A DNA stretch of 64,000 nt, taken from NCBI GenBank assembly GCA_030646995.1, contig JAUSKF010000001.1:5700-69699 (forward strand). The letters are read 5' to 3'. The translations under genes were made by a program, and so were the position numbers. The notes beneath the pieces are model-generated. The model did not search any database. It saw nothing but the letters and a program-made list of their open reading frames with translations, and had not been told where the DNA came from. The stretch is from a bacterium (GTDB lineage: Bacteria > Patescibacteriota > Minisyncoccia > UBA6257 > WO2-44-18). This document shows positions 3,620-63,023 of this stretch, in pieces; within the stretch, counting starts at the first letter, position 1, and the number at the start of each line of letters is the position of its first letter.

Positions 3620-4681
3620 CTAAATCGCGCGTTTTTTAAGAACTACGACAAGTGATGTCGAAACTAACATTAAGGCTCCCATCAGCATAAAAGTATTCCA
3701 AAGGGCGTCACTCTCTTCAGGGGGAATTCCGGCATTCGGAAGGCTAGGTGTCGGAACTGGAGCTACTACAGGGGCTGGAGCCGGAGCCACCACAGGGGCT
3801 ACCACTGGAGTTGGCGCGGGTGTCGGTGCGGGAGTTGGCGTTGGGGTTGGGGTCGGAGCAGGTGTTGGTGTCGGAGCTGGGGTTGGGGTCGGAGCAGGTG
3901 TCGGAGTTGGGGCCGGGGCTGGCGCTGGGGCAACCGGAACCGAAACAGTATTACCATCCATTGTAACTTGGGTTTGTGCTAACGCCCTACCATTCAATAC
4001 TGCGCCAGTTTGCATAATGACCTGCTTTGCGCTCAATATAGTTCCCTTGAATGTAGAAGTCGTTCCCAGAGTTGCACCAGTAGGACCGCCAACCTGCCAG
4101 AAGACATTCGAAGCTAGGGCACCGCCGGCGAGGACTACCTGCTGAGCAGAGGCGATGGTGAGATCACCGGAGATTTGGAATATCCAAACATCACTCGCGC
4201 TACCGGAAAGAGTAACGTTAGTCGGAATCGTAACATTGGTGCTCCATTTATAGAGTCCTGGGGCGATGGTTAAGCCACCGATATTCCCAGCGCCTAATTC
4301 AGTCGCGGTTGGACCAGTTCTTCCGGCGGCGTTGGTATATGCGGCTTCCATATCACTCACAGCCGTAGTCAAAGAAGTCGGACTGACTACTCTGCACGCA
4401 GGGCCAGCGGCATCAACTGTGTAAATAGTCCCGGTCACTTCCGGGCAGCCTAATCCGGTGATAGATGCGCCAGTAATTGGGCTGGTTCCCAAATTTCCGG
4501 TAATGGCAGATGTGGGGATATTAGTAATCCCTGTTTTTGACAGAATCACGAAATTTCCCGCCGTCAAAAGATCGACTGGCGCAGGGCCTGCCGCAGACGC
4601 CATAAACAATCCAGTAAGACCAAGCAGAGAAGAAACTACTGATGCGGCTATGATTGAACTTTTAGTAAACTTTTGGGTCAT
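3620..4681 (-). CDS. Cell-surface protein with an ice-binding-like DUF3494 domain, a Pro/Thr/Ala-rich linker and a C-terminal LPNAG sorting signal
   Basis: [36 protein letters not shown] matches the DUF3494/IBP N-terminal consensus. A long APAPTPTP linker follows. The C-terminus reads LPNAG, then a hydrophobic stretch, then KKRAI. Confidence 0.6.
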
Positions 4682-13729: not shown

Positions 13730-15181
13730 TTATTGAAAAATGCTGAAGATGTTTGGGATTTTGGAGAATGCAGTGATTATTTTCGCGCAGACATTGATGA
13801 CTCCTAATTCGTAGCCGAGAAGGATACTTGCCGGAAAGCTCAATGCCCAAGCGAGCGGGTAGGCAATCAGCGAGGCGAAACCGATAAAAAATCCTAAGCC
13901 CATTGTGATGGGAATGAATTCCAAAAGCAAAACGTTGGAAATCAAACCAATCGGAGAAAATTGCCCGAAGTGATAGAGCAAAATCGGCAGTACAGCTATC
14001 TGCGCCGAAGTGGTGGTAGTCAGATGCTTCCGCCAATTGAAATATCCCGACTTGTCCTGCCATTTCAGCTTCTTTTCTATCCACGGCTGGAAGTAAGTAA
14101 TACCCAAAAGAGCCGCGAAGGACAATTGAAAGCCGATATCAAAGGCTAAAATGTGGGGATTGACACCAACCATCACCAACGCCGTCGCCGCCACGGCGTT
14201 GCGGAAGTAATAAACCCGATGCAATTTATCTGCGAGCAAAATTAGAAATCCCATCATCGCCGCGCGCACCACCGAAGCCTCCGCGCCCGTCATTACCACG
14301 AAGCCGAGCACCATTCCGGAGCTTATCCAAAATGAAAATCTTTTCGTAAACCACCACAGAGCAAGCAGATTTATCACCGTACTGATAATTACCGAAATGT
14401 TGTATCCCGAAAGCGCCACCAGATGGCTGGTGCCCGTTGCCCGCAATTTTTCTTTCAACTCATCGGAAAATTCCGCCGTCTCTCCCAGAGTTAAGCCGGC
14501 CATAAATACCGCCTGATCAAACGGCAAGACTTTTTTGAAACTGGATTCAAAGAAAGATTTTATTTTCAGCAGCTGCGCCTTCACCGGCGAACCATTCCCG
14601 CTAGATACCAATTCTATTTCCGGAAATCCCACCACGCCCGCTATCCCCTCTTTTTTGTAGTAGCTGGCGAATTCTGCATCCGGCTTTTTAACCACTCCCA
14701 CCACTTTTATCTCGTCGCCATAATCAAACGCGGGATAGCGGCTGGTGTTGATCTGAATATTTTCAATCACCAACTTCTGACTGCTCAATCTCTGCTCCGC
14801 TTCGCGAATCACTCCCGAAAACTGCACTTTTTCACCAAAGATTATCCGATTGTCTTGCTTGGCGTAATCAAAGGCAAAGAAGTACACGGAACCGACGACT
14901 AACGACAAAACGACCAACGACAAGGAAACCAATGACGAACCATCAACGACTAATGACTTACGACGAACAACGATGACCAGGAGGAACAAAAGCAAAATAA
15001 ACAATCCCGCGATTAGATATGCGTGCGTAAACCCGCTGACCACGCTCGCCACCAGCACTCCCGCCAGAAAAAAGCAGGCGAACCAGAAGAAAATGTCGTG
15101 CAGTTTCACCCCGTTAGAAATCCGCCCTTCCGTAGGAACGGCGGCAGCCGCTAGGGGCGGCTTATTTCTAACGGGGTTCAT
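13730..15181 (-). CDS. comEC: ComEC/Rec2 competence channel (membrane domain only)
   Basis: Multi-TM protein with the competence-domain signature HLVALSGYNISVI; contains a low-complexity insert VVRRKSLVVDGSSLVSLSLVVLS. Confidence 0.7.
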   Translation of the reverse strand: MNPVRNKPPLAAAAVPTEGRISNGVKLHDIFFWFACFFLAGVLVASVVSGFTHAYLIAGLFILLLFLLVIVVRRKSLVVDGSSLVSLSLVVLSLVVGSVYFFAFDYAKQDNRIIFGEKVQFSGVIREAEQRLSSQKLVIENIQINTSRYPAFDYGDEIKVVGVVKKPDAEFASYYKKEGIAGVVGFPEIELVSSGNGSPVKAQLLKIKSFFESSFKKVLPFDQAVFMAGLTLGETAEFSDELKEKLRATGTSHLVALSGYNISVIISTVINLLALWWFTKRFSFWISSGMVLGFVVMTGAEASVVRAAMMGFLILLADKLHRVYYFRNAVAATALVMVGVNPHILAFDIGFQLSFAALLGITYFQPWIEKKLKWQDKSGYFNWRKHLTTTTSAQIAVLPILLYHFGQFSPIGLISNVLLLEFIPITMGLGFFIGFASLIAYPLAWALSFPASILLGYELGVINVCAKIITAFSKIPNIFSIFQ

Positions 15182-17620: not shown

Positions 17621-19423
17621 TTATTCTGGCTTCTTTTTATTCAGTGATTCCCTGAGAGCATCGCGCAGGGCGCCGAGGTCTACCGGCTTTTTTTCACGGA
17701 TAATCTTTTCGGGTTTGGAATCAGCTGCCGCTTCGGAACGAAGCGGTAAATCACCAAGAGACATTGGCTTGGGCTTAGGAACGGCGGCTTGCAACTCCAC
17801 CCTTGGAGGCTCCGGCTTTGGCGCCACAGGCTTAGGCGGCGCGAGGACAGGCTTAACGATTTTAGGGGCTTCGGGCTTAATGAACTTCGGAACCAAGCTG
17901 ACTAACTTTTCCACTAAACTGGGCTTAGGAGTGGGCATAGGATCCCCCGGCCGAGTGAGTTTTACAGGCTGAATATCGGAAAACGCCGGGCGGGGCACGG
18001 GTTTAGCGGTGCGAAAATCTCCACCTCCGGCCGCCGGTTTGGGCCCCGAACCAAATGCATTTGGCACGGGGCGAGGCTTACGAAAGTCCCCTCCTCCGCC
18101 ACCCTCACTGCCAAATCTTTCATCGGATGGCGGTGGCACCGCCAGAAATTCTTTCGCAATCTTATCGGATACCTGCTTCAGAGGCGTGGCGTAAGTGCTA
18201 CGGGTGTGGGCAATAATCAAATCCTTATAAGAAATAGCTGGGGTAGCTACCGGAGGCAAGCCTTGAGCGGAAAAAGGGCGCGAAGAAATACCGTCAATCA
18301 TTAATTTGATATACACATTCGCCTTAGCCAAATTCACAATGTCGGTCGCCATAAAATCAGGCTCGAATTCCTTTTCTAAAAATTCCGCGTCTTCTCCTCC
18401 TACTCTGAAGGTAATAATCGTGCCGACGTTACCGAACACCGCGTCGCGAACTTTAGTATTTAAGTCGTGAGTAAGCTGGCGGATGTATTGGTGCGCCAAA
18501 ATCAGGCAGAGGCGGTATTTTCTGGCTTCAGAAAGAATGTTGGCAAAAGAATCGGTTGCAAAGTTCTGGAACTCGTCTACATATAGATAGAAATCTTTAC
18601 GGTCCGGCTCGGGAATATCCACGCGGGACATAGCCGCCAGCTGAAGCTTGGTGATAATCATTGAACCAAGCAAGGCCGAGTTATCTTCTCCGATTTTTCC
18701 TTTAGATAAATTGAAAATAAGAATCTTCCGCTCGTCTATCGCTTGGCGAAGATTAAGAGCCGATTTATTCTGACCTAAAATATTACGAACCAGCGGATTG
18801 GCTACGAACTGACCGATTTTGTTTTGAATGGCGGCCGTTGCTTCCGTTTCAAATTTTGCTGAATAACGCGCAAATTCATTCACCCAAAAACCTTTAATAA
18901 CCGGGTCTTTCAGCTGGTCTACTTTAGACTTGCGATAATCCTTGTCCGACAAAAGACGCTGAACGCCCAACATATTAGAGTCCGGAAACTCCAACATCGT
19001 GAGCAGAGAGTTGTTCAAAATGTATTCCATCCGAGGAGACCAGACGTCCGGCCATATTTTCTTGAACACACCCATCAGACCTGAAGCCACTAAATAACGG
19101 AACTCATCTTGTACCTGCTCAAGCGGATTAAAAGCAATCGGAAAATTAATATCAGCAGGGTCAAAATAAACCACATCTTTCACGCGGTCCTTGGGAACGA
19201 AGTCCAACATTTTTTCAGCAAAGTCTCCGTGCGGATCCATCACGCCCACGCCGTGGCCGTTGACCATATCGGAGATAACCATGTTTTCGAGTGTGGTCGT
19301 CTTGCCCATACCGGTCTTACCGATGAGGTACATATGCCGACGGCGGTCATCAATTTTGATGCCGAACTTAGTGGTCGCACCGCGGAAGTTAACTTGCCCG
19401 AAAATGTTTATATCTTTAGCCAT
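17621..19423 (-). CDS. P-loop ATPase of the FtsK/HerA/TraG (type IV secretion coupling-protein-like) superfamily with a Pro/Lys-rich C-terminal tail
   Basis: Walker A LIGKTGMGKTT, Walker B LYVDEFQNF, arginine-finger region ARKYRLCLILAHQ; 600 aa; no N-terminal TM. Confidence 0.55.
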   Translation of the reverse strand: MAKDINIFGQVNFRGATTKFGIKIDDRRRHMYLIGKTGMGKTTTLENMVISDMVNGHGVGVMDPHGDFAEKMLDFVPKDRVKDVVYFDPADINFPIAFNPLEQVQDEFRYLVASGLMGVFKKIWPDVWSPRMEYILNNSLLTMLEFPDSNMLGVQRLLSDKDYRKSKVDQLKDPVIKGFWVNEFARYSAKFETEATAAIQNKIGQFVANPLVRNILGQNKSALNLRQAIDERKILIFNLSKGKIGEDNSALLGSMIITKLQLAAMSRVDIPEPDRKDFYLYVDEFQNFATDSFANILSEARKYRLCLILAHQYIRQLTHDLNTKVRDAVFGNVGTIITFRVGGEDAEFLEKEFEPDFMATDIVNLAKANVYIKLMIDGISSRPFSAQGLPPVATPAISYKDLIIAHTRSTYATPLKQVSDKIAKEFLAVPPPSDERFGSEGGGGGDFRKPRPVPNAFGSGPKPAAGGGDFRTAKPVPRPAFSDIQPVKLTRPGDPMPTPKPSLVEKLVSLVPKFIKPEAPKIVKPVLAPPKPVAPKPEPPRVELQAAVPKPKPMSLGDLPLRSEAAADSKPEKIIREKKPVDLGALRDALRESLNKKKPE

Positions 19424-22847: not shown

Positions 22848-24089
22848 TTATTGCCTAGAAAATGCCCGTAAAATTATACGGGTTACAATAATGGCGCTAA
22901 ACATACTAACCACTACGCCCAGCAATAACGTCAAAGCGAAGCCTTTTACGAAGCTGGAAGTGAAATAATAAAGGATAATCGAAGTGAGCATCGTGGAAAT
23001 GTTGGAATCTCTAATAGATGGCCAAGCGCGGCGAAAACCCTCTTCCAAGGCGCCGGACCGCGAAACCCCTCTTGCCGACTCTTCTTTCATACGGGCGAAA
23101 ATTAAAATATTCGCATCCACCGCCATTCCGATAGACAGAATAAATCCCGCGATGCCGGCTAGAGTCATAGTGATTCCAAATAGCTTAAAGACGGCAAGAG
23201 CAAAGGCAATGTAGAATACCAATGCCAAAGAAGCCACGAAGCCCAACGAGCGGTAGTAGAGCAACATAAAGATAATGATTGCCAAAGTGCCAACCAATCC
23301 GGCTTTAATTGCTTTCTCCAAAGAGTCTATGCCCAAAGAGGCCCCGATAGTCTGCTGACTAATTATATGAATGGGGGCCGGTAAAGCGCCGGCATTAAAC
23401 AAGCTCACCAATCGCCTAACCTCCTTATGGTCCATATTTCCGCTAATCTGCGCACTGCCTCCGGAAATCGCCTCCTGCACGGTCGGATTGGAAATCAAAT
23501 CGCCATCGAGAAAAATAGCCAAAGGCTTGCCGATATTCCGCTTCGTTAAGGCCTCAAAGAGCCGGGCGCCTTCCGCATCAAAATCGATAGCGATAATGGA
23601 CTGACCGGTGGTCTGATCAGGAACGATCTGCGCTTTCTTTAAAAATCTGCCAGTCAATCCCGTCGGAATAAATTCGGCCTTCTCCTGCTCTCCTGTTCCG
23701 GTGATTCTCACCTCACGGAAATCCAGCAACGCCACCCGGCCAATCTGCTTCACTGCCTCCTCCAAATCTTTAATTCCGGCCAATTCCACGATTAATTGAT
23801 GGGAGTCTCCACGCTTGGCAGTGGTAACTCTCGGCTCACTCACGCCGAACACATTCACACGGCGCTCCATTACATCCCGCAAGCCAGACAAAACCGAGCC
23901 GCGATCTGCGGAAGCGATACCGTTCATATCCACTTCATATACAAGGTAACTGCCACCCACCAAATCCAAGCCTAAGCGCCACGGCAAAACTTGATTGCCG
24001 AATCCTTGAGGCAAAATAAAAAGCGCCGAAACTCCGGCGAGAAGCGTTACCAATAAAAGCAATAAAAGATTTTTAGTTCGAAATGGCAT
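22848..24089 (-). CDS. secD: Protein translocase subunit SecD
   Basis: 413 aa; SecD topology and conserved C-terminal TM bundle; upstream of secF. Confidence 0.8.
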   Translation of the reverse strand: MPFRTKNLLLLLLVTLLAGVSALFILPQGFGNQVLPWRLGLDLVGGSYLVYEVDMNGIASADRGSVLSGLRDVMERRVNVFGVSEPRVTTAKRGDSHQLIVELAGIKDLEEAVKQIGRVALLDFREVRITGTGEQEKAEFIPTGLTGRFLKKAQIVPDQTTGQSIIAIDFDAEGARLFEALTKRNIGKPLAIFLDGDLISNPTVQEAISGGSAQISGNMDHKEVRRLVSLFNAGALPAPIHIISQQTIGASLGIDSLEKAIKAGLVGTLAIIIFMLLYYRSLGFVASLALVFYIAFALAVFKLFGITMTLAGIAGFILSIGMAVDANILIFARMKEESARGVSRSGALEEGFRRAWPSIRDSNISTMLTSIILYYFTSSFVKGFALTLLLGVVVSMFSAIIVTRIILRAFSRQ

Positions 24090-24197
24090 ATGCGATTAAA
24101 AGTGATTTTAATTATATTATCTGCGGGATAATTTTACAAGGAATTTACTAATTTCGCGAAATGTATTAAAATGTATACTATTAAAAAGTAAGCGGAC

Positions 24198-24268
24198 GCC
24201 TCCATAGCTTAATGGTAAAGCAGCTGCCTTTTAAGCAGTTGACCAAGGTTCGATTCCTTGTGGGGGCA
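24198..24268 (+). tRNA. tRNA-Lys (anticodon UUU)
   Basis: Acceptor GCCUCCA/UGGGGGC, D-stem GCUU/AAGC, anticodon stem GCUGC/GCAGU with loop CUUUUAA, T-stem CAAGG/CCUUG with loop UUCGAUU. Confidence 0.8.
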
Positions 24269-24274
24269 CAAATT

Positions 24275-24305
24275 TTAAGACCGGCCATTAGGCCGGTTTT
24301 AAAAT
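24275..24305 (+). terminator. Intrinsic terminator after tRNA-Lys
   Basis: ACCGGCC-ATTA-GGCCGGT hairpin followed by TTTTAAAATTTTT. Confidence 0.5.
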
Positions 24306-24317
24306 TTTTGTCTTTAT

Positions 24318-24483
24318 GGAATCGAACAGCCGCACCCCGTATTGGAAGGCAGAGCACTACCCCGCGGGGTAGTGCTCGTCGGAAACCAGAAGGTGTCCGC
24401 TCCGCCAGCTGGCGGAGGGGGTCGGGGTGCGGCGAAAGTGTTCGAGCCGAGTACTCGAGGCCCTGTTCCTTGTGGGGGCACAA
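24318..24483 (+). repeat. tRNA-3'-associated structured repeat element, copy 1, ending in an 18 bp direct repeat of the tRNA-Lys 3' end
   Basis: About 85% identical to 46269-46408 and homologous to 38798-38944; direct repeat TTCCTTGTGGGGGCACAA at 24254-24271 and 24466-24483. Confidence 0.55.
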
Positions 24484-24542
24484 CGAAGACGTTAGGGGTT
24501 TTATTTTCTAAACCCCGATTCTGATGTATAATACAGGCAACA

Positions 24543-25748
24543 ATGAAGATCGCTATTATCGGCTCCGGACGCGAAGGCAAATCGGTCCTGAAGTTCTTAA
24601 AAAAAGCTCCGCAATACAGAAAGGCGGAGGTTGTTGTCTTGGACCAACAAGACGGCCCGGATTATCTGAAAGAACTTAATTCTTTCGATTTGATTTTCCG
24701 CTCTCCCGGCGTCCCCTACAACCTTCCGGAAATTCAGGCGGCAATTAAATCAGGGAAGAAAGTTTCCAGCGCGACGAAACTCTTTTTTGAACTCTGCCCG
24801 GCTAAAATCATCGGCGTGACCGGCACAAAAGGGAAAGGCACAACATCAACATTAATCTCTGAAATTTTAAAAAGATCCGGTAAAAAAGTTTTGCTCGCCG
24901 GAAACATCGGACTATCACCTCTGGAAATACTACCGAAAGTGGATGCCAAAACTCTGGTAGTTCTAGAGCTCTCCAGCTTCCAACTTCAAGACTTGGACAA
25001 ATCTCCGGACGTTGCTGTAATCACTGACATCTTCCCCGATCATATGGATGTTCATAAAGATTTGGAGGAATACCTCGCCGCCAAATCCAACATCTGCAAT
25101 CACCAAGTAAATCCTGGAGTGGTGTTTTATTTTTCCGACAACCGGCCCGGCGCAAAAATCGCTTCATTGTGCTTAGGAAAAAAGATTGCCGTGAATGCTC
25201 CGAATAACCTCAACAAGAACCGGATACTCGCCGCCGCCGTAGCCAAGCATCTGGGTTGCCAGGAGAAAGTAATCGCCACTACTCTCGAAAATTTCCGAGG
25301 GTTGGAGCATCGCTTGGAGTTGGTCACAAAAAAAGGAATGGTGAAATTTTACAATGATTCTGCCAGCACTAATCCGAATACCGCCGCTGCTGCAGTATCA
25401 ACCCTGATTGCCGAGACGCCGGTAATTTTAATCGCGGGGGGGAAAGATAAAAATTTGGATTACGCTCCTCTTGCCGATGAACTAAACAATCACCGCGACC
25501 GCATAGAAAGCTTGGTGCTTTACGGAGAGAATAAAGCTAAAATTAGCGGCTCAATGAGAGAAATTCGTTTGCCGATTGAACAGGTGCGGGACTTGAAGGC
25601 AGCAGCAGAAATCGCCTATAAAACCGCCAAGGAAATGGATTCCCCCGTAGCCATCCTACTTTCTCCTGGAGCAGCCAGTTTCGATATGTTTACGGACTAC
25701 GCAGACCGAGGTGAGCAATTTAAAAAAATAGTGCGAAAGTTGAAATAA
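24543..25748 (+). CDS. murD: UDP-N-acetylmuramoylalanine--D-glutamate ligase (Mur ligase family)
   Basis: GVTGTKGKGTTS P-loop, Mur ligase middle and C-terminal domains; 401 aa. Confidence 0.8.
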   Translation: MKIAIIGSGREGKSVLKFLKKAPQYRKAEVVVLDQQDGPDYLKELNSFDLIFRSPGVPYNLPEIQAAIKSGKKVSSATKLFFELCPAKIIGVTGTKGKGTTSTLISEILKRSGKKVLLAGNIGLSPLEILPKVDAKTLVVLELSSFQLQDLDKSPDVAVITDIFPDHMDVHKDLEEYLAAKSNICNHQVNPGVVFYFSDNRPGAKIASLCLGKKIAVNAPNNLNKNRILAAAVAKHLGCQEKVIATTLENFRGLEHRLELVTKKGMVKFYNDSASTNPNTAAAAVSTLIAETPVILIAGGKDKNLDYAPLADELNNHRDRIESLVLYGENKAKISGSMREIRLPIEQVRDLKAAAEIAYKTAKEMDSPVAILLSPGAASFDMFTDYADRGEQFKKIVRKLK

Positions 25749-31546: not shown

Positions 31547-32296
31547 TTACAGGTATAGGCGAATTATCACGTCTCCGAAAATAATCGTCAGCAAGGAAGC
31601 TAGCGCTAAAAATGGGCCGAACGGAATAGCATCTTTTAGTTTCTTTATTCTCAAGAGCAAAATAACCGCTCCGGCAACTCCACCCGCTACAAATGCCAGC
31701 GCCAATAAAATCAAGATTTTCGGCCAACCAAACAACAAACCCAAGGCTGCAACAAACTTCCAATCACCTATACCCATTCCCCTTCCTCTGCTCCCCAATA
31801 CCAACAATCCGATAATCAGGAATCCCACCACCGCTCCAAGCAAATGATTTATTAAAATAGGCCCCGAAAAGTCTTTAATAAATAACCCGATTGCCAGCAG
31901 CGCCAGCAAAACATTCAGTTGATCGGGAATTACCAAAAGGCGTAGATCGACCAGGGTGATTAGTAATAAGGTAAGCAAAATCGCGATCCAAATTGGCGCG
32001 TTTGGAAGATATAGCGGCGTCAGGGCGAAAATTAAACCTCCGGCAATCTCCACAATCGGATACTGCCAACCCAAAGCCTTGCCACACCGCCGACAACGTC
32101 CTAATTGAAACAAAAAACTCAAAAGCGGAATTAATTCATACCAACGGAGAATTTTCTTACAATAAGGACATCGGGAGCGGCCGGTTAAAATATCTTGCCG
32201 GAATATTTTTCCGCCGTCCTCATACCGCAAAGCCAAAACATTCAAAAAACTGCCTATGGCAGTACCTCCCAAAAATAAAATAACTGAAGCCAACAT
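31547..32296 (-). CDS. Prepilin peptidase (A24 family, PilD-like)
   Basis: N-terminal CPYC...CRRC zinc-binding region, followed by the polytopic peptidase domain that carries the conserved catalytic Asp residues. Confidence 0.75.
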   Translation of the reverse strand: MLASVILFLGGTAIGSFLNVLALRYEDGGKIFRQDILTGRSRCPYCKKILRWYELIPLLSFLFQLGRCRRCGKALGWQYPIVEIAGGLIFALTPLYLPNAPIWIAILLTLLLITLVDLRLLVIPDQLNVLLALLAIGLFIKDFSGPILINHLLGAVVGFLIIGLLVLGSRGRGMGIGDWKFVAALGLLFGWPKILILLALAFVAGGVAGAVILLLRIKKLKDAIPFGPFLALASLLTIIFGDVIIRLYL

Positions 32297-33366
32297 TAAA
32301 TCTTATCAACCAACAATTTCAACTCTCCGGGATTGAGCGAGTTTAATTCCGCGCTTTCCAAGGTGATTTTTTTCGCCTTCACAAGTTGCGCGAGCGAACG
32401 ATTCAAGGTGACCATTCCACTCTTGAGATTAGTTTCAATCACCAAATCGATCTGATGAGTTTTCTTCTCACGGATTAGATTACGGACTGCGGAATTTACC
32501 AACATCACCTCACAAGCGGGCACGCGTCCGCCGCCAATCTTCGGAATTAATCGCTTGGAAACTACGGCTACCAAGGTTGCCGCCAATTGTGATGCCGCCT
32601 GCGATTGCTTCTCCGGAGGGAAGGTGTCAATAATACGGTCAATCGTTTGCGCGGCGGAGTTGGTGTGCAAAGTAGAAAGCACTAAATGGCCCGTTTCTGC
32701 CGCAGTCATAGCAGTAGAGATAGATTCTACATCACGCATTTCGCCAATCATCACTACGTCTGGATCTTGCCGCAAAACCGATTTTAGAGCGCGGTGAAAC
32801 CCAACGGTATCGGTATTCACCTCACGCTGAGAGATAACTGCTTTATCGGGATCAAATAAATATTCAATAGGGTCTTCAATGGTAACGATGTGCTCCGCCC
32901 GAGTGCGATTTATTTCATCCAAAATGGCGGCTAGAGTAGTTGATTTCCCGTGACCGGCCGGACCGACGATCAGCACGAAGCCTTGAGTCAATTTAGCAAA
33001 ATCATGCAAGATGGGCGGCAATTCCAAGGCATCAATGCTGTCCACTTTCGCCGGAATTAAACGAGCGGCCATGGAAACATGCCCTTTTTGGAAATAAGTA
33101 TTGATACGGAAACGCACCCCAGCCTCATGGCTATAGCTAAAATCCAGCTCCTTTTGCCCATAAAATTTTTCTTTTTGTTCTTCGCTGAATAAAGCCTCCG
33201 CAATCCCGCTGGCGGTTTCCGCGTTAACTTCCGCCTCGTCTTTTATGGCGGCAAGCTCTCCGTCCACGCGCACATGGGGCTTGATTCCGACGTTAATATG
33301 CAAATCGGATGCCCCCGCGTTAACTGTGTCCGTTAAAAGCTTGTGAAGATATTTTTTGTAGTCCAT
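32296..33366 (-). CDS. pilT: Type IV pilus retraction ATPase PilT-like (start set at the internal Met)
   Basis: N-terminal ASDLHINVG, Walker A GPAGHGKSTT, Asp box, Walker B and His box of PilT/GspE secretion ATPases; about 356 aa. Confidence 0.75.
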   Translation of the reverse strand: MDYKKYLHKLLTDTVNAGASDLHINVGIKPHVRVDGELAAIKDEAEVNAETASGIAEALFSEEQKEKFYGQKELDFSYSHEAGVRFRINTYFQKGHVSMAARLIPAKVDSIDALELPPILHDFAKLTQGFVLIVGPAGHGKSTTLAAILDEINRTRAEHIVTIEDPIEYLFDPDKAVISQREVNTDTVGFHRALKSVLRQDPDVVMIGEMRDVESISTAMTAAETGHLVLSTLHTNSAAQTIDRIIDTFPPEKQSQAASQLAATLVAVVSKRLIPKIGGGRVPACEVMLVNSAVRNLIREKKTHQIDLVIETNLKSGMVTLNRSLAQLVKAKKITLESAELNSLNPGELKLLVDKI

Positions 33367-34060
33367 TGGCAATATTGAAAACGGAATTTGAAAAAAGCGC
33401 TTGCTCAATCTTCTGTTTTTCAGCAATCTCCCGCGTTTTATTCATTATAACATCCCACACATAACTCTTTATGTATGGGACGCCGTCTAAAGCCTGCGAA
33501 GCGCCGCCAAAATCACTGTGGAAAACATATTCTACTGAACCATTGCGAACGACAGAGAAAGTGGTGGACCGGCTTCCAATATCAACCACCAACTTACGCC
33601 CTAAGTCATTTTGAAAACGATGCGCAATTGCCGAACTTTCCAATTCCAACCGGACTAAACGCAGGGCGCACAAATCGGCGATAGCTTCATATTTTTCCGA
33701 AACCTCTTTAGGAATCGCCACAATAAAGTAACGCCCGTCATCCAACTGCGTAGCTTCCAGCCTATAAGTTGCGGGATTAGCGGGTATAAATTTCGGGTCA
33801 ACCACATCGGCAATGACGGTAAAAACATAAAAGGAAGGCAGGGACATTACCGCCGATTGCGTGCTTACGCCCATGCAAGACAAAAGATTGGTTAGCGCTC
33901 CGGCTGCATCTTCGGCATCAATTGGCCGAATGCTGGAGTGAAATGACTTAGAGGGACGCTCCAATATTCCCCAACTCAACACTTTTCCAAAGGCATTTTT
34001 TTCCAGCACCTTGATTGAACTGGTGCCGATGTCTATGCAAAGATATGACTCATCCAACAT
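33320..34060 (-). CDS. PilM-like actin-fold protein (type IV pilus assembly)
   Basis: N-terminal LCIDIGTSSIKVL phosphate-1 motif of the actin/HSP70 fold; 246 aa. The C-terminal tail overlaps the pilT upstream region, so the 3' boundary is uncertain. Confidence 0.45.
   Translation of the reverse strand: MLDESYLCIDIGTSSIKVLEKNAFGKVLSWGILERPSKSFHSSIRPIDAEDAAGALTNLLSCMGVSTQSAVMSLPSFYVFTVIADVVDPKFIPANPATYRLEATQLDDGRYFIVAIPKEVSEKYEAIADLCALRLVRLELESSAIAHRFQNDLGRKLVVDIGSRSTTFSVVRNGSVEYVFHSDFGGASQALDGVPYIKSYVWDVIMNKTREIAEKQKIEQALFSNSVFNIANGLQKISSQAFNGHS
33452..33484. promoter_or_regulatory. Palindromic motif B (ATCCCACACATAA-N4-TTATGTATGGGAC), 86-118 nt upstream of pilT
   Basis: 11 bp inverted arms; same motif at 51507-51539 and 53719-53751. 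Confidence 0.45.
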
Positions 34061-38575: not shown

Positions 38576-38626
38576 CCCCTATTTCCACATATTCTCCGCA
38601 GCGATGCGGGGATTTTTTATTTGAAA
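38576..38626 (+). terminator. Repeated terminator module (CCCCTATTTCCACAT + CTCCGCAGCGATGCGGGG hairpin + T-run)
   Basis: Near-identical 50 nt copy at 54033-54084, immediately after another plus-strand gene. Confidence 0.55.
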
Positions 38627-38663
38627 TAATCACTAAAAAAACTTATAATGTCTTTAGTCAAAT

Positions 38664-38753
38664 GGAAGCGTGGCAGAGTGGTCTAACGCGCCGCACTTGA
38701 AATGCGGTAAGCCCGCAAGGGCTTCGAAGGTTCGAATCCTTCCGCTTCCGCCA
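38664..38753 (+). tRNA. tRNA-Ser (anticodon UGA), CCA encoded
   Basis: Type II tRNA: acceptor GGAAGCG/CGCUUCC, anticodon stem CCGCA/UGCGG with loop CUUGAAA, long variable arm, T-loop UUCGAAU. Confidence 0.8.
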
Positions 38754-38797
38754 AAATTGAGAACATCCCAACCGGGGTGTTTTTAATTTTGCTGAAG

Positions 38798-38944
38798 GAT
38801 TCGAACCGAGCGTCACCCCGTCCAGGAAGGATTCGGAAACCGAAGGTGTCCGAATGGGGGTCGGGGTGACGCGAATGGTTCGGCGAGGTTTGGGGCCGTC
38901 CGGCACAAACCGAAGCGTAAATCCAATTTCCGCTTCCGCCAAAA
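38798..38944 (+). repeat. tRNA-3'-associated structured repeat element, copy 3, ending in a 17 bp direct repeat of the tRNA-Ser 3' end
   Basis: Shares GGATTCGAAC...CACCCCG...GGAAGGATTCGGAAACC-GAAGGTGTCCGA...GGGGTCGGGGTG with the other two copies; direct repeat TTCCGCTTCCGCCAAAA at 38740-38756 and 38928-38944. Confidence 0.5.
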
Positions 38945-38967
38945 CAAAAAACTGCCCTAGGGCAGTT

Positions 38968-39468
38968 TTATAGTTTCTTGCGAAAAAGAGTACTGTCGCG
39001 CTTTTCAAAACCCAACTTCAAATAAAGCTTGTGGGCCGCGGCTCTGTCCGGACCATTACCGGAAGACAAGTTAACACTCTTCAGATGCAACGCTTGAGCA
39101 ACTTCAAGTAATTTCTCCATTAGCTTAACGGCGATTCCTTGACGCTGATAATTTTCGTCAACTACTACATCTTCAATATAGCCATTGATAACAGAGAACT
39201 TCTGATGAATAAACATCATCGCCATCCCCGCCACTTTCATTTCGAGAGGATTTCCATAATCGATAGCCAGCGCGGTAATCGTACGCTCCTGCCGGCACGC
39301 TGACCAAAATTCATCGGTGTTCAGCAAAGGAGCTGATTTAGACTTAGAAAGCTGTTTGAGTAGATTACAGATGCCGACTTTAAACTCCGACCGGCAGCTA
39401 TCCAAATAATTCCAAGTCTGAACGTGTGGAGGAAGATTAAACCCACTCCGTGCCTCGATCTCAATCAT
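38968..39468 (-). CDS. GNAT family N-acetyltransferase
   Basis: Acetyl-CoA motif A QRQGIAVKLM; 166 aa; terminator downstream. Confidence 0.65.
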   Translation of the reverse strand: MIEIEARSGFNLPPHVQTWNYLDSCRSEFKVGICNLLKQLSKSKSAPLLNTDEFWSACRQERTITALAIDYGNPLEMKVAGMAMMFIHQKFSVINGYIEDVVVDENYQRQGIAVKLMEKLLEVAQALHLKSVNLSSGNGPDRAAAHKLYLKLGFEKRDSTLFRKKL

Positions 39469-42494: not shown

Positions 42495-42584
42495 GGAGGG
42501 TTGGCAGAGTGGTCTAACGCGCCGCACTCGAAATGCGGTTGGGAAGAAATTCCCTCGGAGGTTCGAATCCTCCACCCTCCGCCA
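42495..42584 (+). tRNA. tRNA-Ser (anticodon CGA), CCA encoded
   Basis: Type II tRNA: acceptor GGAGGGU/ACCCUCC, loop CUCGAAA, long variable arm, T-loop UUCGAAU. Confidence 0.8.
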
Positions 42585-42657
42585 GGGCCTATAGTTCAGT
42601 GGTAGAACGCCTCGTTTGCAACGAGGAGGGGGGAGTTCGATTCTCCCTAGGTCCACC
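42585..42657 (+). tRNA. tRNA-Ala (anticodon UGC)
   Basis: Acceptor GGGCCUA/UAGGUCC (G3:U70), anticodon stem CCUCG/CGAGG with loop UUUGCAA, T-loop UUCGAUU. Confidence 0.8.
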
Positions 42658-45077: not shown

Positions 45078-45174
45078 AATAAAAAAGCCTTGCGGCTCTA
45101 AGTTTATAGATTGTACTACACTTGACTTTAAAAGTCAAATGTTGGACTATCTCTGAGCGGGCAGGGGGGGGCTG

Positions 45175-45245
45175 AGCGGGTAAGGGGAATCGAACCCCTG
45201 TCTTTAGCTTGGAAAGCTAAGGTAATGCCATTATACGATACCCGC
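45175..45245 (-). tRNA. tRNA-Gly (anticodon UCC)
   Basis: Acceptor GCGGGUA/UACCCGC, anticodon stem UUAGC/GCUAA with loop UUUCCAA, T-loop UUCGAUU. A 9 nt duplicate of the 3' end (CTGAGCGGG) lies at 45153-45161. Confidence 0.75.
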
Positions 45246-46147: not shown

Positions 46148-46219
46148 GCCCCCGTAGCTCAATGGTCAGAGCGCACGGTTTCTACCCGTTAGATGTGGGT
46201 TCGATTCCTACCGGGGGCA
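46148..46219 (+). tRNA. tRNA-Arg (anticodon UCU)
   Basis: Acceptor GCCCCCG/CGGGGGC, loop UUUCUAC, T-stem GUGGG/CCUAC with loop UUCGAUU. Confidence 0.75.
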
Positions 46220-46225
46220 CAATTT

Positions 46226-46252
46226 AAAACCAGGACTTAAGTCCTGGTTTTA
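46226..46252 (+). terminator. Intrinsic terminator
   Basis: AACCAGGACTTAAGTCCTGGTT hairpin plus TTTAAATT. Confidence 0.5.
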
Positions 46253-46268
46253 AATTCATGCTTTCCGT

Positions 46269-46408
46269 AGGAATCGAACAGCCGCACCCCGTGTTGGAAG
46301 GATTCGGAAACCAGAAGGTGTCCGATCCGCCAACTGGCGGAGGGGGTCGGGGTGCGGCGAAGGTGTTCGAGGTTGAGCAAAGCGAAACCCCTGTTCCTAC
46401 CGGGGGCA
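46269..46408 (+). repeat. tRNA-3'-associated structured repeat element, copy 2, ending in a 15 bp direct repeat of the tRNA-Arg 3' end. A third degenerate repeat lies at 46598-46613.
   Basis: Direct repeat TTCCTACCGGGGGCA at 46205-46219, 46394-46408 and 46598-46612. Internal CCGCACCCCG...CGGGGTGCGG long-range pairing and a TCCGCCAACTGGCGGA hairpin. Confidence 0.55.
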
Positions 46409-46701
46409 TATTGCTCAAACAGTTCTCTCGCATCACCAGAGCTCTTTTTGGCCAGCGCCAAAAAGGCTCTTTTCTCTCGGCAGTTCAATTTTGGTTAAAG
46501 AGATATTATAACCAAAAACCCGCTTGAACTGCCTCCGAGATATGCTGCTCAAAAACTATTTTCGCGGTTGGACGAAAGCGGGGCGACTTGTAGCCGATTC
46601 CTACCGGGGGCACTAATAAAAAACTGCGGCCTAGGCCGCAGTTTTTTACATAACCTAAGTGAATTCTTCCTCGGCATTCGCCTCGGACATTTCCGCTAGA
46701 G

Positions 46702-63019: not shown

Positions 63020-63023
63020 ACTA

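Follow-up and report, generated by a model that had tools for sequence, protein, structure and literature searches.

A CPR/Patescibacteria family of small structured elements tied to tRNA and tmRNA 3′ ends, with a possible role as a non-autonomous mobile element

A GC-rich segment that occurs three times in the window, the 64-kb stretch of bacterial DNA analysed here, proved to belong to a family of elements that is specific to the CPR/Patescibacteria lineage and strictly tied to the 3′ ends of tRNA and tmRNA genes. Our best explanation, to which we give roughly even credence, is that these elements are lineage-specific non-autonomous mobile elements that home to tRNA/tmRNA 3′ ends and specify a structured RNA in the sense of the tRNA. 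In line with the first impression that the segment belonged to no described class, no Rfam, phage or plasmid match was obtained, and we could not find the family in the literature searched.

The three copies lie where the initial annotation had placed them, 40-50 nt 3′ of tRNA-Lys, tRNA-Arg and tRNA-Ser (Table 1). Over aligned positions the Lys and Arg copies are 89% identical (about 85% in the first estimate), and identity is 83% for Arg/Ser and 79% for Lys/Ser. Their GC content is 60-66% versus 46% for the window, and the 20-mer CGGAAACCNGAAGGTGTCCG occurs twice where 0.01 occurrences were expected. A covariance-model search of the 64 kb returned exactly three matches (Ser 105, Arg 67.6, Lys 50.7 bits), and single-sequence folding gave z values of -5.2 (Lys), -3.4 (Arg) and -4.8 (Ser). 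As had been claimed, each copy is closed by an exact 15-18-nt repeat of the 3′ end of its own tRNA, and the 5′ sequence (GGAATCGAAC / GGATTCGAACC) matches the reverse complement of the T-loop of the adjacent tRNA exactly. A 13-nt tRNA-end repeat (at most one mismatch, within 1.5 kb downstream) was detected behind all three element-bearing tRNAs and behind none of the other nine window tRNAs, which are also without a GC-rich copy. The copies carry no genuine ORF, again as first stated: the overlapping 83-116-aa ORFs are spurious and unconserved between copies. A protein-coding reading of them was rejected because indels between copies are not multiples of three (the second variable hairpin, for instance, has 17 nt in one copy and 3 nt in another) and because substitutions in the helices are compensatory.

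Table 1. Positions of the elements, host tRNA genes and repeats in the window
Feature	Position	Strand	Details
tRNA-Lys(UUU), intact host gene	24198..24269	+	ARAGORN; Rfam tRNA 75.7 bits; sequence
Lys direct-repeat copy 1	24254-24271	+	last 18 nt; starts at T-loop position 59 and extends 3 nt beyond the discriminator
Lys palindromic terminator-like hairpin AAATTTTAAGACCGGCC ATTA GGCCGGTTTTAAAATTT	24270..24307	+	between tRNA and element; terminator scan
Lys element body	24318..24465	+	
Lys antisense T-loop GGAATCGAAC	24318-24327		
Lys P1	24329-24339 with 24423-24433		
Lys GGAAGG	24344-24349		
Lys optional hairpins	24350-24379 and 24400-24416		
Lys P3 hairpin	24380-24399		
Lys GGGGGT	24417-24422		
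Lys T-loop 5′ half GTTCGA	24440-24445		
Lys GA-motif hairpin	24446-24465		
Lys direct-repeat copy 2 (tail) TTCCTTGTGGGGGCACAA	24466..24483	+	identical to 24254-24271 in tRNA-Lys
tRNA-Ser(UGA)	38664..38753	+	ARAGORN; own promoter TTGAAA-17-TATAAT at 38621-38649
Ser direct-repeat copy 1	38740-38756	+	
Ser element body, compact form	38794..38927	+	covariance model 105 bits
Ser antisense T-arm GAAGGATTCGAACC	38794-38807		
Ser P1	38810-38820 with 38862-38872		
Ser GGAAGG	38825-38830		
Ser P3	38834-38852		
Ser GGGGGT	38856-38861		
Ser T-loop 5′ half GGTTCG	38877-38882		
Ser long GA-motif hairpin	38883-38919		
Ser AATCC	38920-38924		pairs with GGATT of the antisense segment
Ser AAT	38925-38927		
Ser direct-repeat copy 2 TTCCGCTTCCGCCAAAA	38928..38944	+	identical to 38740-38756; includes encoded CCA and trailer A's
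Ser bidirectional terminator	38948-38969		follows the tail
tRNA-Arg(UCU)	46148..46220	+	ARAGORN
Arg direct-repeat copy 1	46205-46219		
Arg palindromic hairpin AATTTAAAACCAGGAC TTAA GTCCTGGTTTTAAATT	46222..46257	+	arrived with the element; sequence and alignment to the Lys locus
Arg element body	46265/46270-46393	+	covariance model 67.6 bits
Arg antisense T-arm CCGTAGGAATCGAAC	46265-46279		13 nt complementary to T-loop and T-stem 3′ strand of tRNA-Arg
Arg P1	46281-46291 with 46348-46358		
Arg GGAAGG	46296-46301		
Arg P3	46305-46324		
Arg optional hairpin	46325-46341		
Arg GGGGGT	46342-46347		
Arg GTTCGA	46365-46370		
Arg GA-motif hairpin	46371-46393		
Arg direct-repeat copy 2 TTCCTACCGGGGGCA	46394..46408	+	identical to 46205-46219
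Second insert at Arg (family 2)	46409..46595	+	unrelated to the first element; AT-richer
Arg direct-repeat copy 3 GATTCCTACCGGGGGCAC	46596..46613	+	18/18
Terminator after Arg copy 3	~46616-46648		
Scar GCCCCCCCC + TGCCCGCTCA behind tRNA-Gly(UCC) (45174-45245, minus)	45154..45172	-	9/10 identical to the tRNA 3′ end

The initial annotation had described a conserved foldable core common to different tRNA targets and had proposed alignment, covariation and folding as a check. The family does align, and covariation and fold both uphold the core. In the consensus fold 96.6% of cells are paired, double changes occur in 15 of 24 pairs, and none of 500 shuffles was as good; slid controls reached at most 51% paired. 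RNAalifold independently recovered P0a, P0b, P1, P3 and the 3′ hairpin, with compensatory changes in 17 of 43 pairs. With compensatory changes beyond both shuffles and slid controls, the elements behave as generic structured non-coding RNAs do, and P3 covaries in a divergent subfamily as well. A mutual-information scan showed no convincing pairs beyond P1; an extra helix (J1/segment after P3) and other tertiary pairs were dropped on the same scan. The core measures about 75 nt and combines invariant unpaired purine-rich motifs with modular optional hairpins. Between the orthologous L030 and L064, about 7 of 135 nt have changed in the core, about 10 of 26 in the terminator stem and about 5 of 17 in the tail; this slow core suggests purifying selection in situ, that is, a function at the level of the host, or else concerted evolution, and it weighs against our best explanation.

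The tRNA-sense strand is indicated as the structured one, probably as RNA, because G.U cells outnumber A.C cells (30:14) and the GA-tandem, GNRA and UUCG hairpins are correct on the plus strand only; covariance-model matches on the reverse strand were ≤19 bits. A minus-strand RNA, prompted by three core-only copies that are placed between a convergent tRNA and a terminator, was set aside on the G.U:A.C ratio, the GA/GNRA/UUCG motifs and the weak reverse scores. At the three window loci a consensus scan detected no sigma-70-like promoter between the tRNA hairpin and the element, a negative that weighs against our best explanation, and it did not support the idea that the A/T arms of the upstream hairpin hold a promoter for the element.

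The search for copies elsewhere, which had been recommended, yielded about 55 further distinct ones by pattern scans and the covariance model, all of them in CPR/Patescibacteria contigs; 24 copies lie in 23 CPR genome contigs, 32 are metagenome loci, L044-L074 come from Hainich groundwater samples, and all the sequences are MAGs and metagenome contigs. The hosts comprise at least 17 tRNA specificities plus tmRNA, among them Lys, Arg, Ser, Asn, Met, Trp, Leu, His, Ala, Asp, Val, Ile, Tyr, Gly and Phe. As regards the expectation that each copy would abut a tRNA end with a matching repeat, nearly all full copies lie downstream of a tRNA or tmRNA on the same strand, and core-only copies and copies with decayed or non-cognate tails also occur. 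A tRNA-end repeat was present 147-197 nt behind 36 of the 84 tRNA/tmRNA genes in the fetched loci. The elements are 150-200 nt long and the direct repeats 14-23 nt, starting at T-loop position 58/59, which confirms the att-like duplication of the tRNA 3′ end reported at the outset. Near-identical elements stand behind Lys(UUU), Arg(UCU), Arg(UCG), Arg(GCG) and Ala(UGC), every tRNA being intact and every tail cognate, and a simple attL/attR crossover in the T-loop would not easily account for them. The invariant loops are kept across Saccharibacteria, Parcubacteria and Harrisonbacteria. At L033 the terminator is absent and the element lies within a tRNA operon, and at L040 the tRNA and the core are separated by 1.3 kb of cargo. 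Core-only copies, with neither antisense segment nor tail, occur at L017, L018, L029, L048 and L070; they could be a stand-alone RNA gene, which would count against our best explanation.

Comparison with relatives, as had been proposed, revealed orthologous sites in different states. The tRNA-Arg(UCU) site is empty in the syntenic L082 and L083, where the terminator lies directly 3′ of the orthologous tRNA. For tRNA-Gly(UCC), a full element is found in L081 (identical tRNA), a scar in the window, and an empty site in L082-L084; the syntenic empty site of L082/L083 lacks the scar. Different subtypes occupy tRNA-Arg(GCG) in L016 and L054. Tandem or truncated copies were seen at L061, L016, L055 and L071 and a chimera at L047, and in tandem arrays the intact copy is next to the tRNA. 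The empty, filled and scarred sites, together with the tandem, truncated and chimeric copies, favour the first of the explanations originally offered, a non-autonomous miniature element, and it is from presence/absence, arrays and scars in sequence that we infer mobility. No comparable site was found for Lys: MurD relatives (82-89% identical) keep SecD...murD without a tRNA-Lys between, and the neighbours differ.

The Arg locus contains a second insert, of a different type (family 2). This insert brings a hairpin-terminator of its own, a stem of 10 bp (GGCAGTTCAA/TTGAACTGCC) and a split T-loop that has become degenerate (GGTTGGA ... GCC|GATTCC). The same type is also present at tRNA-Arg in L012 and L033, and the insert is probably older than the first Arg element. 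A third repeat of the tRNA-Arg end exists as noted earlier, but it is a perfect 18-mer and not the degenerate copy then described. By analogy with the empty site in L082, this repeat and the terminator behind it are most likely the original tRNA-Arg 3′ end and terminator, displaced downstream by two successive insertions. At the Lys locus, the palindromic hairpin can be counted as part of the inserted unit because a homologous hairpin and spacer accompany copies behind other tRNAs (compared with L012, L039, L016 and L074).

Within the element, a three-way junction arises beside the tRNA-derived tail through pairing of the antisense segment with the split T-loop copy. The longest exact match of the antisense segment averaged 10.75 nt for the cognate tRNA versus 7.17 nt for non-cognate tRNAs, which was reached in none of 5000 permutations and shows that the segment is specific for the cognate tRNA. 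The third explanation first offered, a co-transcribed RNA that pairs with the tRNA T-arm, may apply, but the demonstrable partner is the element's own split T-loop copy plus the tail: P0a and P0b flank the hairpin|tail junction, and the 5′ partner is the internal copy, not an exon. The segment is carried along when an element moves, as at L071, where a Gly-type segment is found at tRNA-Val, and at L039a, where it is not matched to the present tRNA. At L038 it is perfectly complementary to the unusual TCCGATT loop of the tRNA, while on the strand of the element itself GGTTCG is retained and forms a G.U pair. Antisense GGATT in the Ser-type subfamily pairs only with the constant, element-internal AATCC, so the structure does not require the segment to read the target, a point against our best explanation. 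The repeats include genomic trailer bases (in L025, AAAT behind the encoded CCA; at tRNA-Lys, a following CAA) and so were copied from DNA or from a precursor. Tails have decayed beside intact cores at L012, L030 and L038; thus an exact tail is dispensable.

Pfam searches detected no integrase, transposase or reverse transcriptase in the 53 window ORFs, and of 150 families matched by the 144 ORFs flanking copies the 25 most frequent were all housekeeping and included none of these enzymes; the three GIY-YIG matches were UvrC. The search for an integrase that had been advised led, within this range, to no linked enzyme. No parent IS was found in about 60 loci, nor was a larger parent element seen. 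That neither an enzyme nor an autonomous relative was detected around the copies examined weighs against our best explanation. The second explanation first offered, an arm of decayed integrative islands, found no support, with no integrase among the window ORFs or the frequent neighbour families and a core far better conserved than its flanks. Rfam 15 returned only the 12 tRNAs over the whole window at the gathering threshold, only tRNA and terminator-like noise at the Lys and Ser loci at E≤10, and tRNA, tmRNA and, elsewhere, LOOT at ten related loci, with nothing for the element. A pattern scan of IMG/VR for a phage or plasmid origin produced eight chance matches only, and blastn ('distant') against phages and plasmids gave no match. 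SRP RNA, RNase P RNA, 6S, tmRNA pieces, Y RNA, T-box, C/D and H/ACA guides, and hammerhead, HDV, twister, pistol, hatchet and hairpin ribozymes were all discarded for want of their defining motifs, the formal comparison being with Rfam only.

Several known systems resemble the elements in part. Tyrosine integrases reportedly put islands and prophages at the T-loop sublocation of tRNA/tmRNA genes. Such islands share with our elements the tRNA/tmRNA 3′ end, the direct repeat from T-loop to gene end, the intact tRNA and tandem accretion, and integrase-less derivatives of them are known. In contrast, our elements measure only 150-200 bp, no integrase was detected in or near the copies examined, and one related family, with a covarying RNA-like core and an internal antisense T-arm, stands behind at least 17 tRNA specificities with cognate tails. 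An integrase island lineage is tied to one tRNA target, since attP carries the 3′ end of that tRNA; the elements, with Lys, Arg and Ala hosts, do not follow this rule. Casposons are said to depend on a Cas1-family casposase and to include Methanosarcina mazei elements at tRNA-Leu. Insertion at the tRNA 3′ end, repeated insertion at the same site and a long duplication of the tRNA end (14-15 bp in casposons) are common to both, which makes casposons a precedent for a tRNA-end duplication that the element itself does not carry. Casposons, however, are 8-20 kb long and have terminal inverted repeats, Cas1 and PolB, none of which was found in our elements, whose ends (AAATTTTAAG... / ...GAGGCCCTG) are not inverted repeats and whose duplication varies from 14 to 23 bp.

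Integron attC sites and the CTX-phage attP(+) are reported to be folded single-stranded recombination sites. Like them, the elements contain an imperfect inverted repeat that folds into a target-mimicking duplex and whose sequence is free to covary as long as the structure persists, and they accumulate in arrays and carry no recombinase; unlike them, they have conserved unpaired motifs, RNA-type loops and a tRNA T-arm as target. TCGAAC...GTTCGA fits the attC boxes RYYYAAC...GTTRRRY only in part, the copies are dispersed behind tRNAs rather than arrayed as attC sites are, and no IntI was seen. The PATEs of IS200/IS605 and the omega/re-RNAs of TnpB/IscB, as reported, likewise include short ORF-less derivatives, a structured scaffold of about 100-150 nt whose 3′ end abuts sequence derived from the flank, and an internal guide that pairs with a target motif. 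Insertion of IS200/IS605 occurs 3′ of a 4-5-nt motif without duplication, whereas a duplication is present here; the Rfam scaffolds of these RNAs fail to match, and no TnpA or TnpB (OrfB/TnpB families) was detected in the window or among the frequent neighbour families. MITEs/Correia, RPE and REP/BIME repeats are also small, non-coding, repeated, foldable and dependent on functions in trans. MITEs differ in having inverted repeats at their termini, duplications of 2-10 bp and a parent IS that can be recognised. Nothing of the kind was seen here: in the elements the inverted repeat, a copy of the T-arm, lies subterminally, duplications span 14-23 bp and a parent IS was not found, and targeting to tRNA 3′ ends is far stricter. 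Group I introns likewise lack an ORF and are abundant in the same phylum, where they are common in tRNA genes (PMC13011429), and their guide pairing with both sides of the junction (P1/P10 logic) may have a counterpart in the 5′-proximal antisense segment of the elements. The T-loop is a known intron site in tmRNA, and the methods of that study locate tmRNA intron boundaries at the T loop (PMC13011429). The elements differ in that they leave the gene uninterrupted and that the partner of the 3′ half of the guide is the internal copy of a T-loop half; the host tRNAs are complete, and Intron_gpI gave no match at E≤10 at the Lys and Ser loci, so that no group I core was recognised.

Under our best explanation, the inserted unit opens with the terminator-like hairpin; a short spacer leads on to the antisense T-arm copy, 10-14 nt long, and to a core closed by P1. 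P1, of 11-12 bp, encloses GGAAGG, the P3 hairpin CGGAAACC-GAA-GGUGUCCG and GGGGGU, and the core is followed by the 5′ half of a T-loop (GGUUCG or GUUCGA) and a hairpin with tandem G.A pairs. Directly 3′ of this last hairpin stands the duplicated end of the host tRNA, which starts at T-loop position 58/59 and stops at the discriminator or a little past it. The antisense segment pairs with the T-loop half inside the element and also with the first part of the duplicate. The 3′ junction of the element is thereby clamped in a three-way junction that mimics, as an internal guide sequence would, the T-arm region of the tRNA gene. Insertion would duplicate the 3′ end of the target, much as a target-site duplication, and leave the tRNA intact; the antisense segment may take part in target choice or joining, an enzyme would act in trans or the RNA itself might contribute, and the RNA would be made by read-through from the tRNA promoter. 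A bolder proposal, tentative and rather improbable, is a new class of RNA-directed mobile element: the antisense T-arm guide of the transcript would dock on the near-universal T-loop of any tRNA or tRNA gene, the core would be a ribozyme or the scaffold of an unlinked effector, and the 3′ end of the element would be joined to position 58/59, giving the tRNA-derived tail.

The elements might instead be resident functional non-coding RNAs, partnered with their tRNAs and not primarily mobile, that act on tRNA metabolism; we regard this as unlikely. Such an RNA would be co-transcribed with the tRNA or processed from it and could pair with the T-arm of the (pre-)tRNA through the antisense segment, its tail, a spare T-loop/T-stem/acceptor 3′ strand, could serve quality control, sequestration or repair of tRNAs damaged in their 3′ half, and copies would have spread by duplication and recombination alongside tRNA genes. 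The orthologous core, much better conserved than its flanks, the loops invariant across three groups, the cognate-specific antisense segment (perfect even to the unusual loop at L038), the terminator-less copy in the operon of L033, the core-only genes, and a co-variation of GGAAGG with P3 that hints at a conformational switch would all suit a resident RNA. It is harder to square with the patchy distribution (3 of 12 window tRNAs, orthologous sites empty in relatives), tail decay beside intact cores, the non-cognate antisense segments or tails at L039a, L071 and L047, the tandem and truncated copies and imprecise scar that are typical of selfish DNA, and the same architecture around the unrelated core of family 2. 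A further alternative is classical site-specific recombination of miniature integrative cassettes by a recombinase encoded elsewhere, which we consider improbable as well: the T-loop crossover would be made by a tyrosine recombinase of the T-loop class or by an Xer- or integron-like enzyme of the host, and the core would be either a small RNA gene carried as cargo or a fold of single-stranded DNA with P0 mimicking double-stranded attB, as in integron attC or CTX-phage attP. A repeat from the T-loop to the gene end, tmRNA included, is a hallmark of T-loop-class integrases, and it is what the elements show; arrays keep the intact copy next to the tRNA, two unrelated cores use the same site and the same antisense/T-loop inverted repeat as if under one recombination system, P0 reproduces the duplex of the T-arm gene, L040 carries cargo, and the window contains ComEC and type IV pilus (DNA-uptake) genes, so that single-stranded DNA enters these cells. 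However, a T-loop crossover would transfer the element-borne tail to the host tRNA, and with intact tRNAs and cognate tails for Lys, Arg(UCU), Arg(UCG), Arg(GCG) and Ala it would need a matching attP for each target. No recombinase appeared among the 25 most frequent of the 150 Pfam families near copies; GNRA/UUCG loops, tandem G.A pairs and the excess of G.U fit RNA better than DNA, and a pure att fold leaves the invariant single-stranded motifs unexplained.

Self-insertion that is RNA-catalysed or RNA-guided, with the antisense T-arm as an internal guide that aligns the 3′ end of the element to position 57/58 of the tRNA or its gene, as in group I intron P1/P10 pairing, seems to us very doubtful. 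The core would then be a small ribozyme or a guide-RNA scaffold for an unlinked effector. That the antisense segment spans exactly the junction of last hairpin and tail, which shifts with the subtype, and travels with the element to targets of near-complementary T-loop (L071, L039a) speaks for it, as do the unpaired invariant purine-rich motifs and optional hairpins, reminiscent of ribozymes and riboswitches, and the frequency of group I introns in Patescibacteria tRNA genes (PMC13011429). Yet the core of about 75 nt matches no ribozyme or intron model in Rfam, a reaction at the RNA level needs reverse transcription to be fixed in DNA and no reverse transcriptase was detected in the window ORFs or the frequent flanking families, no group II introns were detected in Patescibacteria (PMC13011429), the trailer bases point to copying from DNA or precursor, and the host tRNA requires no splicing. 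Finally, some copies are truncated, chimeric or tail-decayed, as would be expected of inert debris that is no longer active or functional, whether decayed remnants of larger islands or repeats that arose by chance. This reading is already disfavoured by the covariation and scarcely credible: about 55 copies in several CPR classes keep the invariant motifs and compensatory pairs, conservation of the core far exceeds that of the non-coding DNA beside it, and no larger parent element was seen.

If our best explanation is true, a repeat family that is widespread and active resides in CPR/Patescibacteria, whose genomes are some of the smallest and are supposed to be some of the poorest in mobile DNA, and it escaped annotation because it has neither a gene nor an Rfam model. 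The element would also break assemblies at tRNA loci and mediate rearrangements, as the chimeric copy and the loss of synteny at element-bearing tRNAs suggest. How one element reaches many tRNAs, leaving each intact with a cognate tail and encoding no recombinase, is a puzzle that, once solved, could bring to light a novel chemistry of insertion or a host enzyme put to new use; the RNA-guided reading, if correct, would make it a minimal, programmable homing system free of protein genes in the most reduced bacterial genomes. On the same condition, the structured RNA motif with its invariant purine-rich loops is new and well supported, and is a candidate ribozyme, protein scaffold or switch. The covariance model from this analysis, which returned 62 matches of which 54 were distinct, is an immediate annotation tool for the family.

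The initial annotation had reported one GC-rich segment behind three different tRNA genes, and ARAGORN, Rfam and our alignment agreed with it: among the 12 tRNA genes of the window, those for Lys, Ser and Arg carry the segment on their 3′ side and in their own orientation. Identity in the aligned part amounts to 89% between Lys and Arg, 83% between Arg and Ser and 79% between Lys and Ser, and the copies have a GC content of 60-66% versus 46% for the whole window. All three begin 40-50 nt past the tRNA and, as had also been claimed, end in an exact repeat of the last 15-18 nt of their own tRNA. When the last 13 nt of each of the 12 tRNAs was searched up to 1.5 kb downstream, repeats were found for the Lys, Ser and Arg tRNAs (3/3) and for none of the other nine. 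Exactly three matches to the covariance model were obtained in the 64-kb window, at these copies. The third repeat behind tRNA-Arg, previously described as degenerate, proved to be a perfect 18-mer. Between repeats 2 and 3 lies a second insert (family 2), AT-richer and unrelated to the main family, with its own hairpin and a 10-bp stem (GGCAGTTCAA/TTGAACTGCC), and ending in ...GACTTGTAGCC/GATTCC. Family 2 is also present downstream of tRNA-Arg in two of the fetched contig stretches (L033 and L012), and the L033 copy has an antisense T-loop segment of its own (TAGGAATCGAAG). Because family 2 shares the site and the antisense/T-loop inverted repeat, at least two sequence families have one architecture and site. 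Elsewhere in the window, tRNA-Ser(CGA) and tRNA-Ala(UGC) are contiguous with zero spacer; elements stand behind each of these tRNA types in L028/L068.

Positions of the features, in the window unless a fetched stretch is named
Feature	Position	Basis or remark
Host tRNA-Lys(UUU)	24198-24269	ARAGORN, Rfam
Host tRNA-Ser(UGA)	38664-38753	ARAGORN, Rfam
Host tRNA-Arg(UCU)	46148-46220	ARAGORN, Rfam
tRNA-Lys end repeat	24466-24483 = 24254-24271	exact sequence match
tRNA-Ser end repeat	38928-38944 = 38740-38756	exact sequence match
tRNA-Arg end repeat	46394-46408 = 46205-46219	exact sequence match
Third tRNA-Arg end repeat	46596-46613	
Family 2 insert	46409-46595	
tRNA-Ser(CGA) and tRNA-Ala(UGC)	42495-42657	
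tRNA-Gly(UCC)	45174-45245	
tRNA-Gly scar	45154-45172	minus strand
SecD...murD	22851-25745	
ComEC, prepilin peptidase, PilB-type ATPase, TrwB/TraG-like ATPase	13733-15181, 31550-33426, 17624-19423	jointly
Phage-like patch	59822-63854	
NOV_C-domain protein	57748-58851	listed with phage-like patch
Ice_binding-like (PF11999) proteins	3623-4681; 46705-47463	
Divergent subfamily	L012 4413-4570; L077 3823-3990	
Core-only copies	L017 5990-6060; L018 6186-6278	
Rearranged relative '1b'	L046 3642-3790	
Conserved ~110-nt stretch	L013 ~980-1100; L040 3040-3180	minus strand in L013

More copies were found in related CPR genomes by two exact-pattern scans, of genomes and of metagenomes, with patterns taken from blocks invariant in the three window copies. 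The genome scan returned 35 stretches, comprising 23 true members (24 copies) and 12 chance matches within high-GC coding regions; two labels apart, all true members are in Saccharibacteria, Parcubacteria, Harrisonbacteria or 'Patescibacteria' MAGs. The 32 metagenome stretches were essentially all genuine, and covariance model R1 gave 62 matches, 54 of them distinct and some missed by the patterns. No element was found in the viral collection (pattern scan) or in GenBank phages and plasmids. All sequences are MAGs and metagenomic contigs; for several genomes, the small number of contigs sampled already contained three or four copies. The two exceptional labels, 'uncultured Gammaproteobacteria' for L010 and L017, are likely binning errors, since copies and context are CPR-type; in L010 the element adjoins a gene for a ResIII helicase of 823 aa that has six HNH_repeat units. 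The contigs of L081, L084 and L085 end at or just past tRNA-Pro, where tRNA-Arg and a repeat element would be expected next, and the family probably breaks short-read assemblies.

Nearly all full copies lie 3′ of a tRNA and on its strand. The hosts are tRNAs for Lys, Arg (three anticodons), Ser (four), Asn, Met, Trp, Leu, His, Ala, Asp, Val, Ile, Tyr, Gly and Phe, and tmRNA for two copies. Typically the tRNA is followed by a palindromic terminator-like hairpin, a short spacer, the element, the tRNA-end repeat and a second terminator; L033 lacks the hairpin, and its element sits between two tRNAs of one operon. Among the 84 tRNA/tmRNA genes of the fetched loci with enough downstream sequence, 36 have an end repeat, mostly at a distance of 147-197 nt. 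Repeat length is 14-23 nt, with the 5′ edge in the T-loop directly past GGTTCG or GTTCGA and the 3′ edge at the discriminator or a few bases further. Because they extend into the genomic trailer, taking in CAA behind tRNA-Lys and, in L025, AAAT behind the encoded CCA, they were copied from DNA or precursor and not from mature tRNA.

Syntenic relatives revealed sites with and without the element. The window and its relatives share a block of BipA, tRNA-Gly(UCC), a hypothetical protein (79-87% identical), tRNA-Pro and tRNA-Arg(UCU). In L082 and L083, whose tRNA-Arg(UCU) differs from that of the window at two positions, this tRNA is followed directly by the terminator, an empty site, whereas in the window it is followed by element, repeat, second insert, third repeat and terminator. 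At the sequence-identical tRNA-Gly(UCC), L081 carries a full element, L082-L084 carry nothing, and the window has a scar of 19 nt, GCCCCCCCC TGCCCGCTCA (= GCCCCCCCCTGCCCGCTCA); this scar corresponds to the L081 element's 3′ edge together with a degenerate repeat and is absent from syntenic L082/L083. Because downstream genes differ between empty and filled sites, the precise limits of the insertions are deduced from the repeats themselves. Other loci likewise indicate turnover: different element subtypes stand behind the same tRNA-Arg(GCG) in L016 and L054, L061 has two copies in tandem, the distal one truncated, and L016 and L055 carry the element 3′ end in duplicate. The L047 copy is chimeric, with mismatched P1 strands and a tail from another tRNA, as expected if two copies had recombined. 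In L040, 1.3 kb with two small ORFs separates tRNA-Ser from the core; 3′ of these ORFs, and also in L013, a conserved ~110-nt stretch (..GACCGAGACACCT..CCCAAGAAAGCC..GGGTTGGT.CTAGACCGA.ACTGCCCG) with no Rfam match precedes the element. The SecD...murD linkage is kept in L077 and L079 (MurD 82-83% identical), with an M50 peptidase and an epimerase in place of the tRNA-Lys and element of the window, a rearrangement at an element-bearing tRNA.

The element starts with an antisense copy of the T-arm (GGAATCGAAC, GGATTCGAACC or tRNA-specific variants), followed by the 5′ strand of helix P1, a 4-5-nt joiner and GGAAGG; an optional hairpin and the P3 hairpin (CGGAAACC-(N)GAA-GGUGUCCG); a short joiner or second optional hairpin, GGGGGU and the P1 3′ strand; and finally a copy of the T-loop 5′ half, a hairpin with GAGC...GCGA (tandem G.A pairs) and the tRNA-derived tail. 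In the model-based alignment 96.6% of cells were paired, with double-sided changes in 15 of 24 pairs, and the seed alignment gave the same pairing result. None of 500 shuffles, which were not phylogeny-corrected, reached the observed values, and slid controls gave at most 51%; an artefact is nevertheless unlikely, given these slid controls and how many pair types are independent. RNAalifold, supplied with 14 full-length copies and no structure, recovered P0a, in which the 5′ half of the antisense segment pairs with AATCC in the tail, P0b, in which the 3′ half pairs with GGTTCG, as well as P1, P3 and the 3′ hairpin, with 17 compensatory pairs out of 43. Because the antisense segment pairs with a T-loop that the last hairpin splits, exactly at the boundary between element and tRNA-derived sequence, the closing part is a three-way junction.

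P3 is invariant across the main family and is confirmed by a divergent subfamily (L012, L077), where CGGA/UCCG changes to GGAG/CUCC while pairing is kept. In exactly those copies GGAAGG becomes GGAGAG, which could form 6 bp with the P3 3′ strand; the joint change hints at an alternative pairing (switch) or a duplicated protein/binding site. The inner part of P1 (CCCCG/CGGGG) never varies in the main family, so that its pairing is putative. Core-only copies (L017, L018, L029, L048, L070) consist of P1 and core with A/U-rich closing stems, have neither antisense T-arm nor tail, and adjoin tRNAs in either orientation, each with a hairpin in front; they may represent an independent RNA gene or else elements that have been stripped. 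In rearranged relatives ('1b'; two copies in L018, one in L046) a GGGGUCGGGG motif lies 5′, not 3′, of the GGAAGG/P3 module.

The longest exact match of the antisense segment averaged 10.75 nt to the adjacent tRNA versus 7.17 nt to other tRNAs of the data set, a value reached by none of 5000 permutations; this specificity arises partly because the segment pairs with the tail, itself a tRNA copy. The segment mirrors T-loop variants (GAGTC, GATCC, TCCGATT, TTCAAAT) and often reaches into the T-stem 3′ strand, as in the 13 nt of the window Arg copy. Adaptation to the host is not universal: a copy within L039 (L039a) keeps AGAATCGAAC although its host tRNA reads ...TTCC, and L071 has a Gly-type segment behind tRNA-Val; thus, the antisense moves with the element and the tail comes from the target.

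The modelled helices contain 30 G.U and 14 A.C cells, optional hairpins are capped by GAA, GAAA, GUAA or UUCG and accompanied by tandem G.A mismatches that would become pyrimidine mismatches on the opposite strand, and the covariance model scored at most 19 bits on the reverse strand. These results point to the tRNA-sense strand. Such loops and pairs are typical of RNA, a folded single-stranded DNA form being a possible alternative. A consensus scan found no promoter between hairpin and element, so transcription would need read-through; tRNA-Ser itself has a good promoter.

No integrase, transposase, reverse transcriptase or Cas1 was found in the 53 largest ORFs of the window or among the frequent families of the 144 ORFs closest to copies outside it, which are housekeeping genes (FtsH, Ddl, ParB, ClpP, MetK, SmpB, UvrC and others). 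The window encodes a ComEC competence channel, a prepilin peptidase, a PilB-type ATPase and a TrwB/TraG-like coupling ATPase, an apparatus for DNA uptake and transfer through which single-stranded DNA would enter the cell. A phage-like patch holds a ParB-N6/N4 DNA methylase fusion, a terminase large subunit and a staphylococcal-nuclease-like protein; no integrase was found in it. A survey of 95 complete Patescibacteria genomes described many group I introns in tRNA anticodon loops and no group II introns, put the boundaries of group I introns in tmRNA at the T loop in its methods, and contains nothing resembling the element (PMC13011429).

The best explanation, which we hold with about even confidence, is a mobile element, non-autonomous and homing to tRNA 3′ ends, that encodes a structured RNA, because of its strict tRNA/tmRNA position, the tRNA-end repeat, the empty, filled and scarred alleles, and also the arrays, fragments, chimeras and lack of a gene. 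Any particular insertion chemistry is held much less firmly. A plain Campbell-type crossover in the T-loop would hand the element's tail to the host tRNA, which conflicts with the near-identical elements behind Lys, three Arg and Ala tRNAs, where all tRNAs are intact and each tail is cognate. The simplest way out would be an insertion that duplicates the target's 3′ end, after which the antisense segment might clamp the new junction, or help to choose it. Casposons duplicate the target 3′ end on insertion at tRNA genes. That the element represents something categorically new, namely RNA-directed self-insertion, we consider unlikely.

A resident functional RNA tied to its tRNA would agree with a core that, between the orthologous copies L030 and L064, changes much more slowly than the terminator stem and tail of the same element, with the core-only copies and with L038, but appears doubtful given the patchy distribution, dispensable tails and selfish-DNA signatures. 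The unrelated second core at the same site with the same inverted repeat (window, L033, L012) would suit recombinase-driven cassettes, possibly recombined as folded single strands with the P0 helix mimicking attB, a reading that the cognate tails and RNA-type motifs render rather unlikely. Guide-like geometry would fit a self-inserting ribozyme or guide RNA, which seems improbable, and inert debris, contradicted by the covariation, is barely credible. The favoured mobile element is most alike, in the genomic traces left, to T-loop-class tRNA/tmRNA integrative elements and to casposons, but has neither the integrase and one-target attP of the former nor the Cas1 and terminal inverted repeats of the latter. 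In its use of an internal complementary segment it recalls group I introns, attC sites of integrons and the guides of IS200/IS605, but it has no intron core, attC boxes or TnpA/TnpB. Rfam holds no model for it and full-text literature searches found no published description. Since it lacks what defines each known family, we place it among the tRNA-targeting mobile elements, as one that carries a new structured RNA motif. The window also encodes two paralogous Ice_binding-like proteins, one directly downstream of the Arg insertion site.
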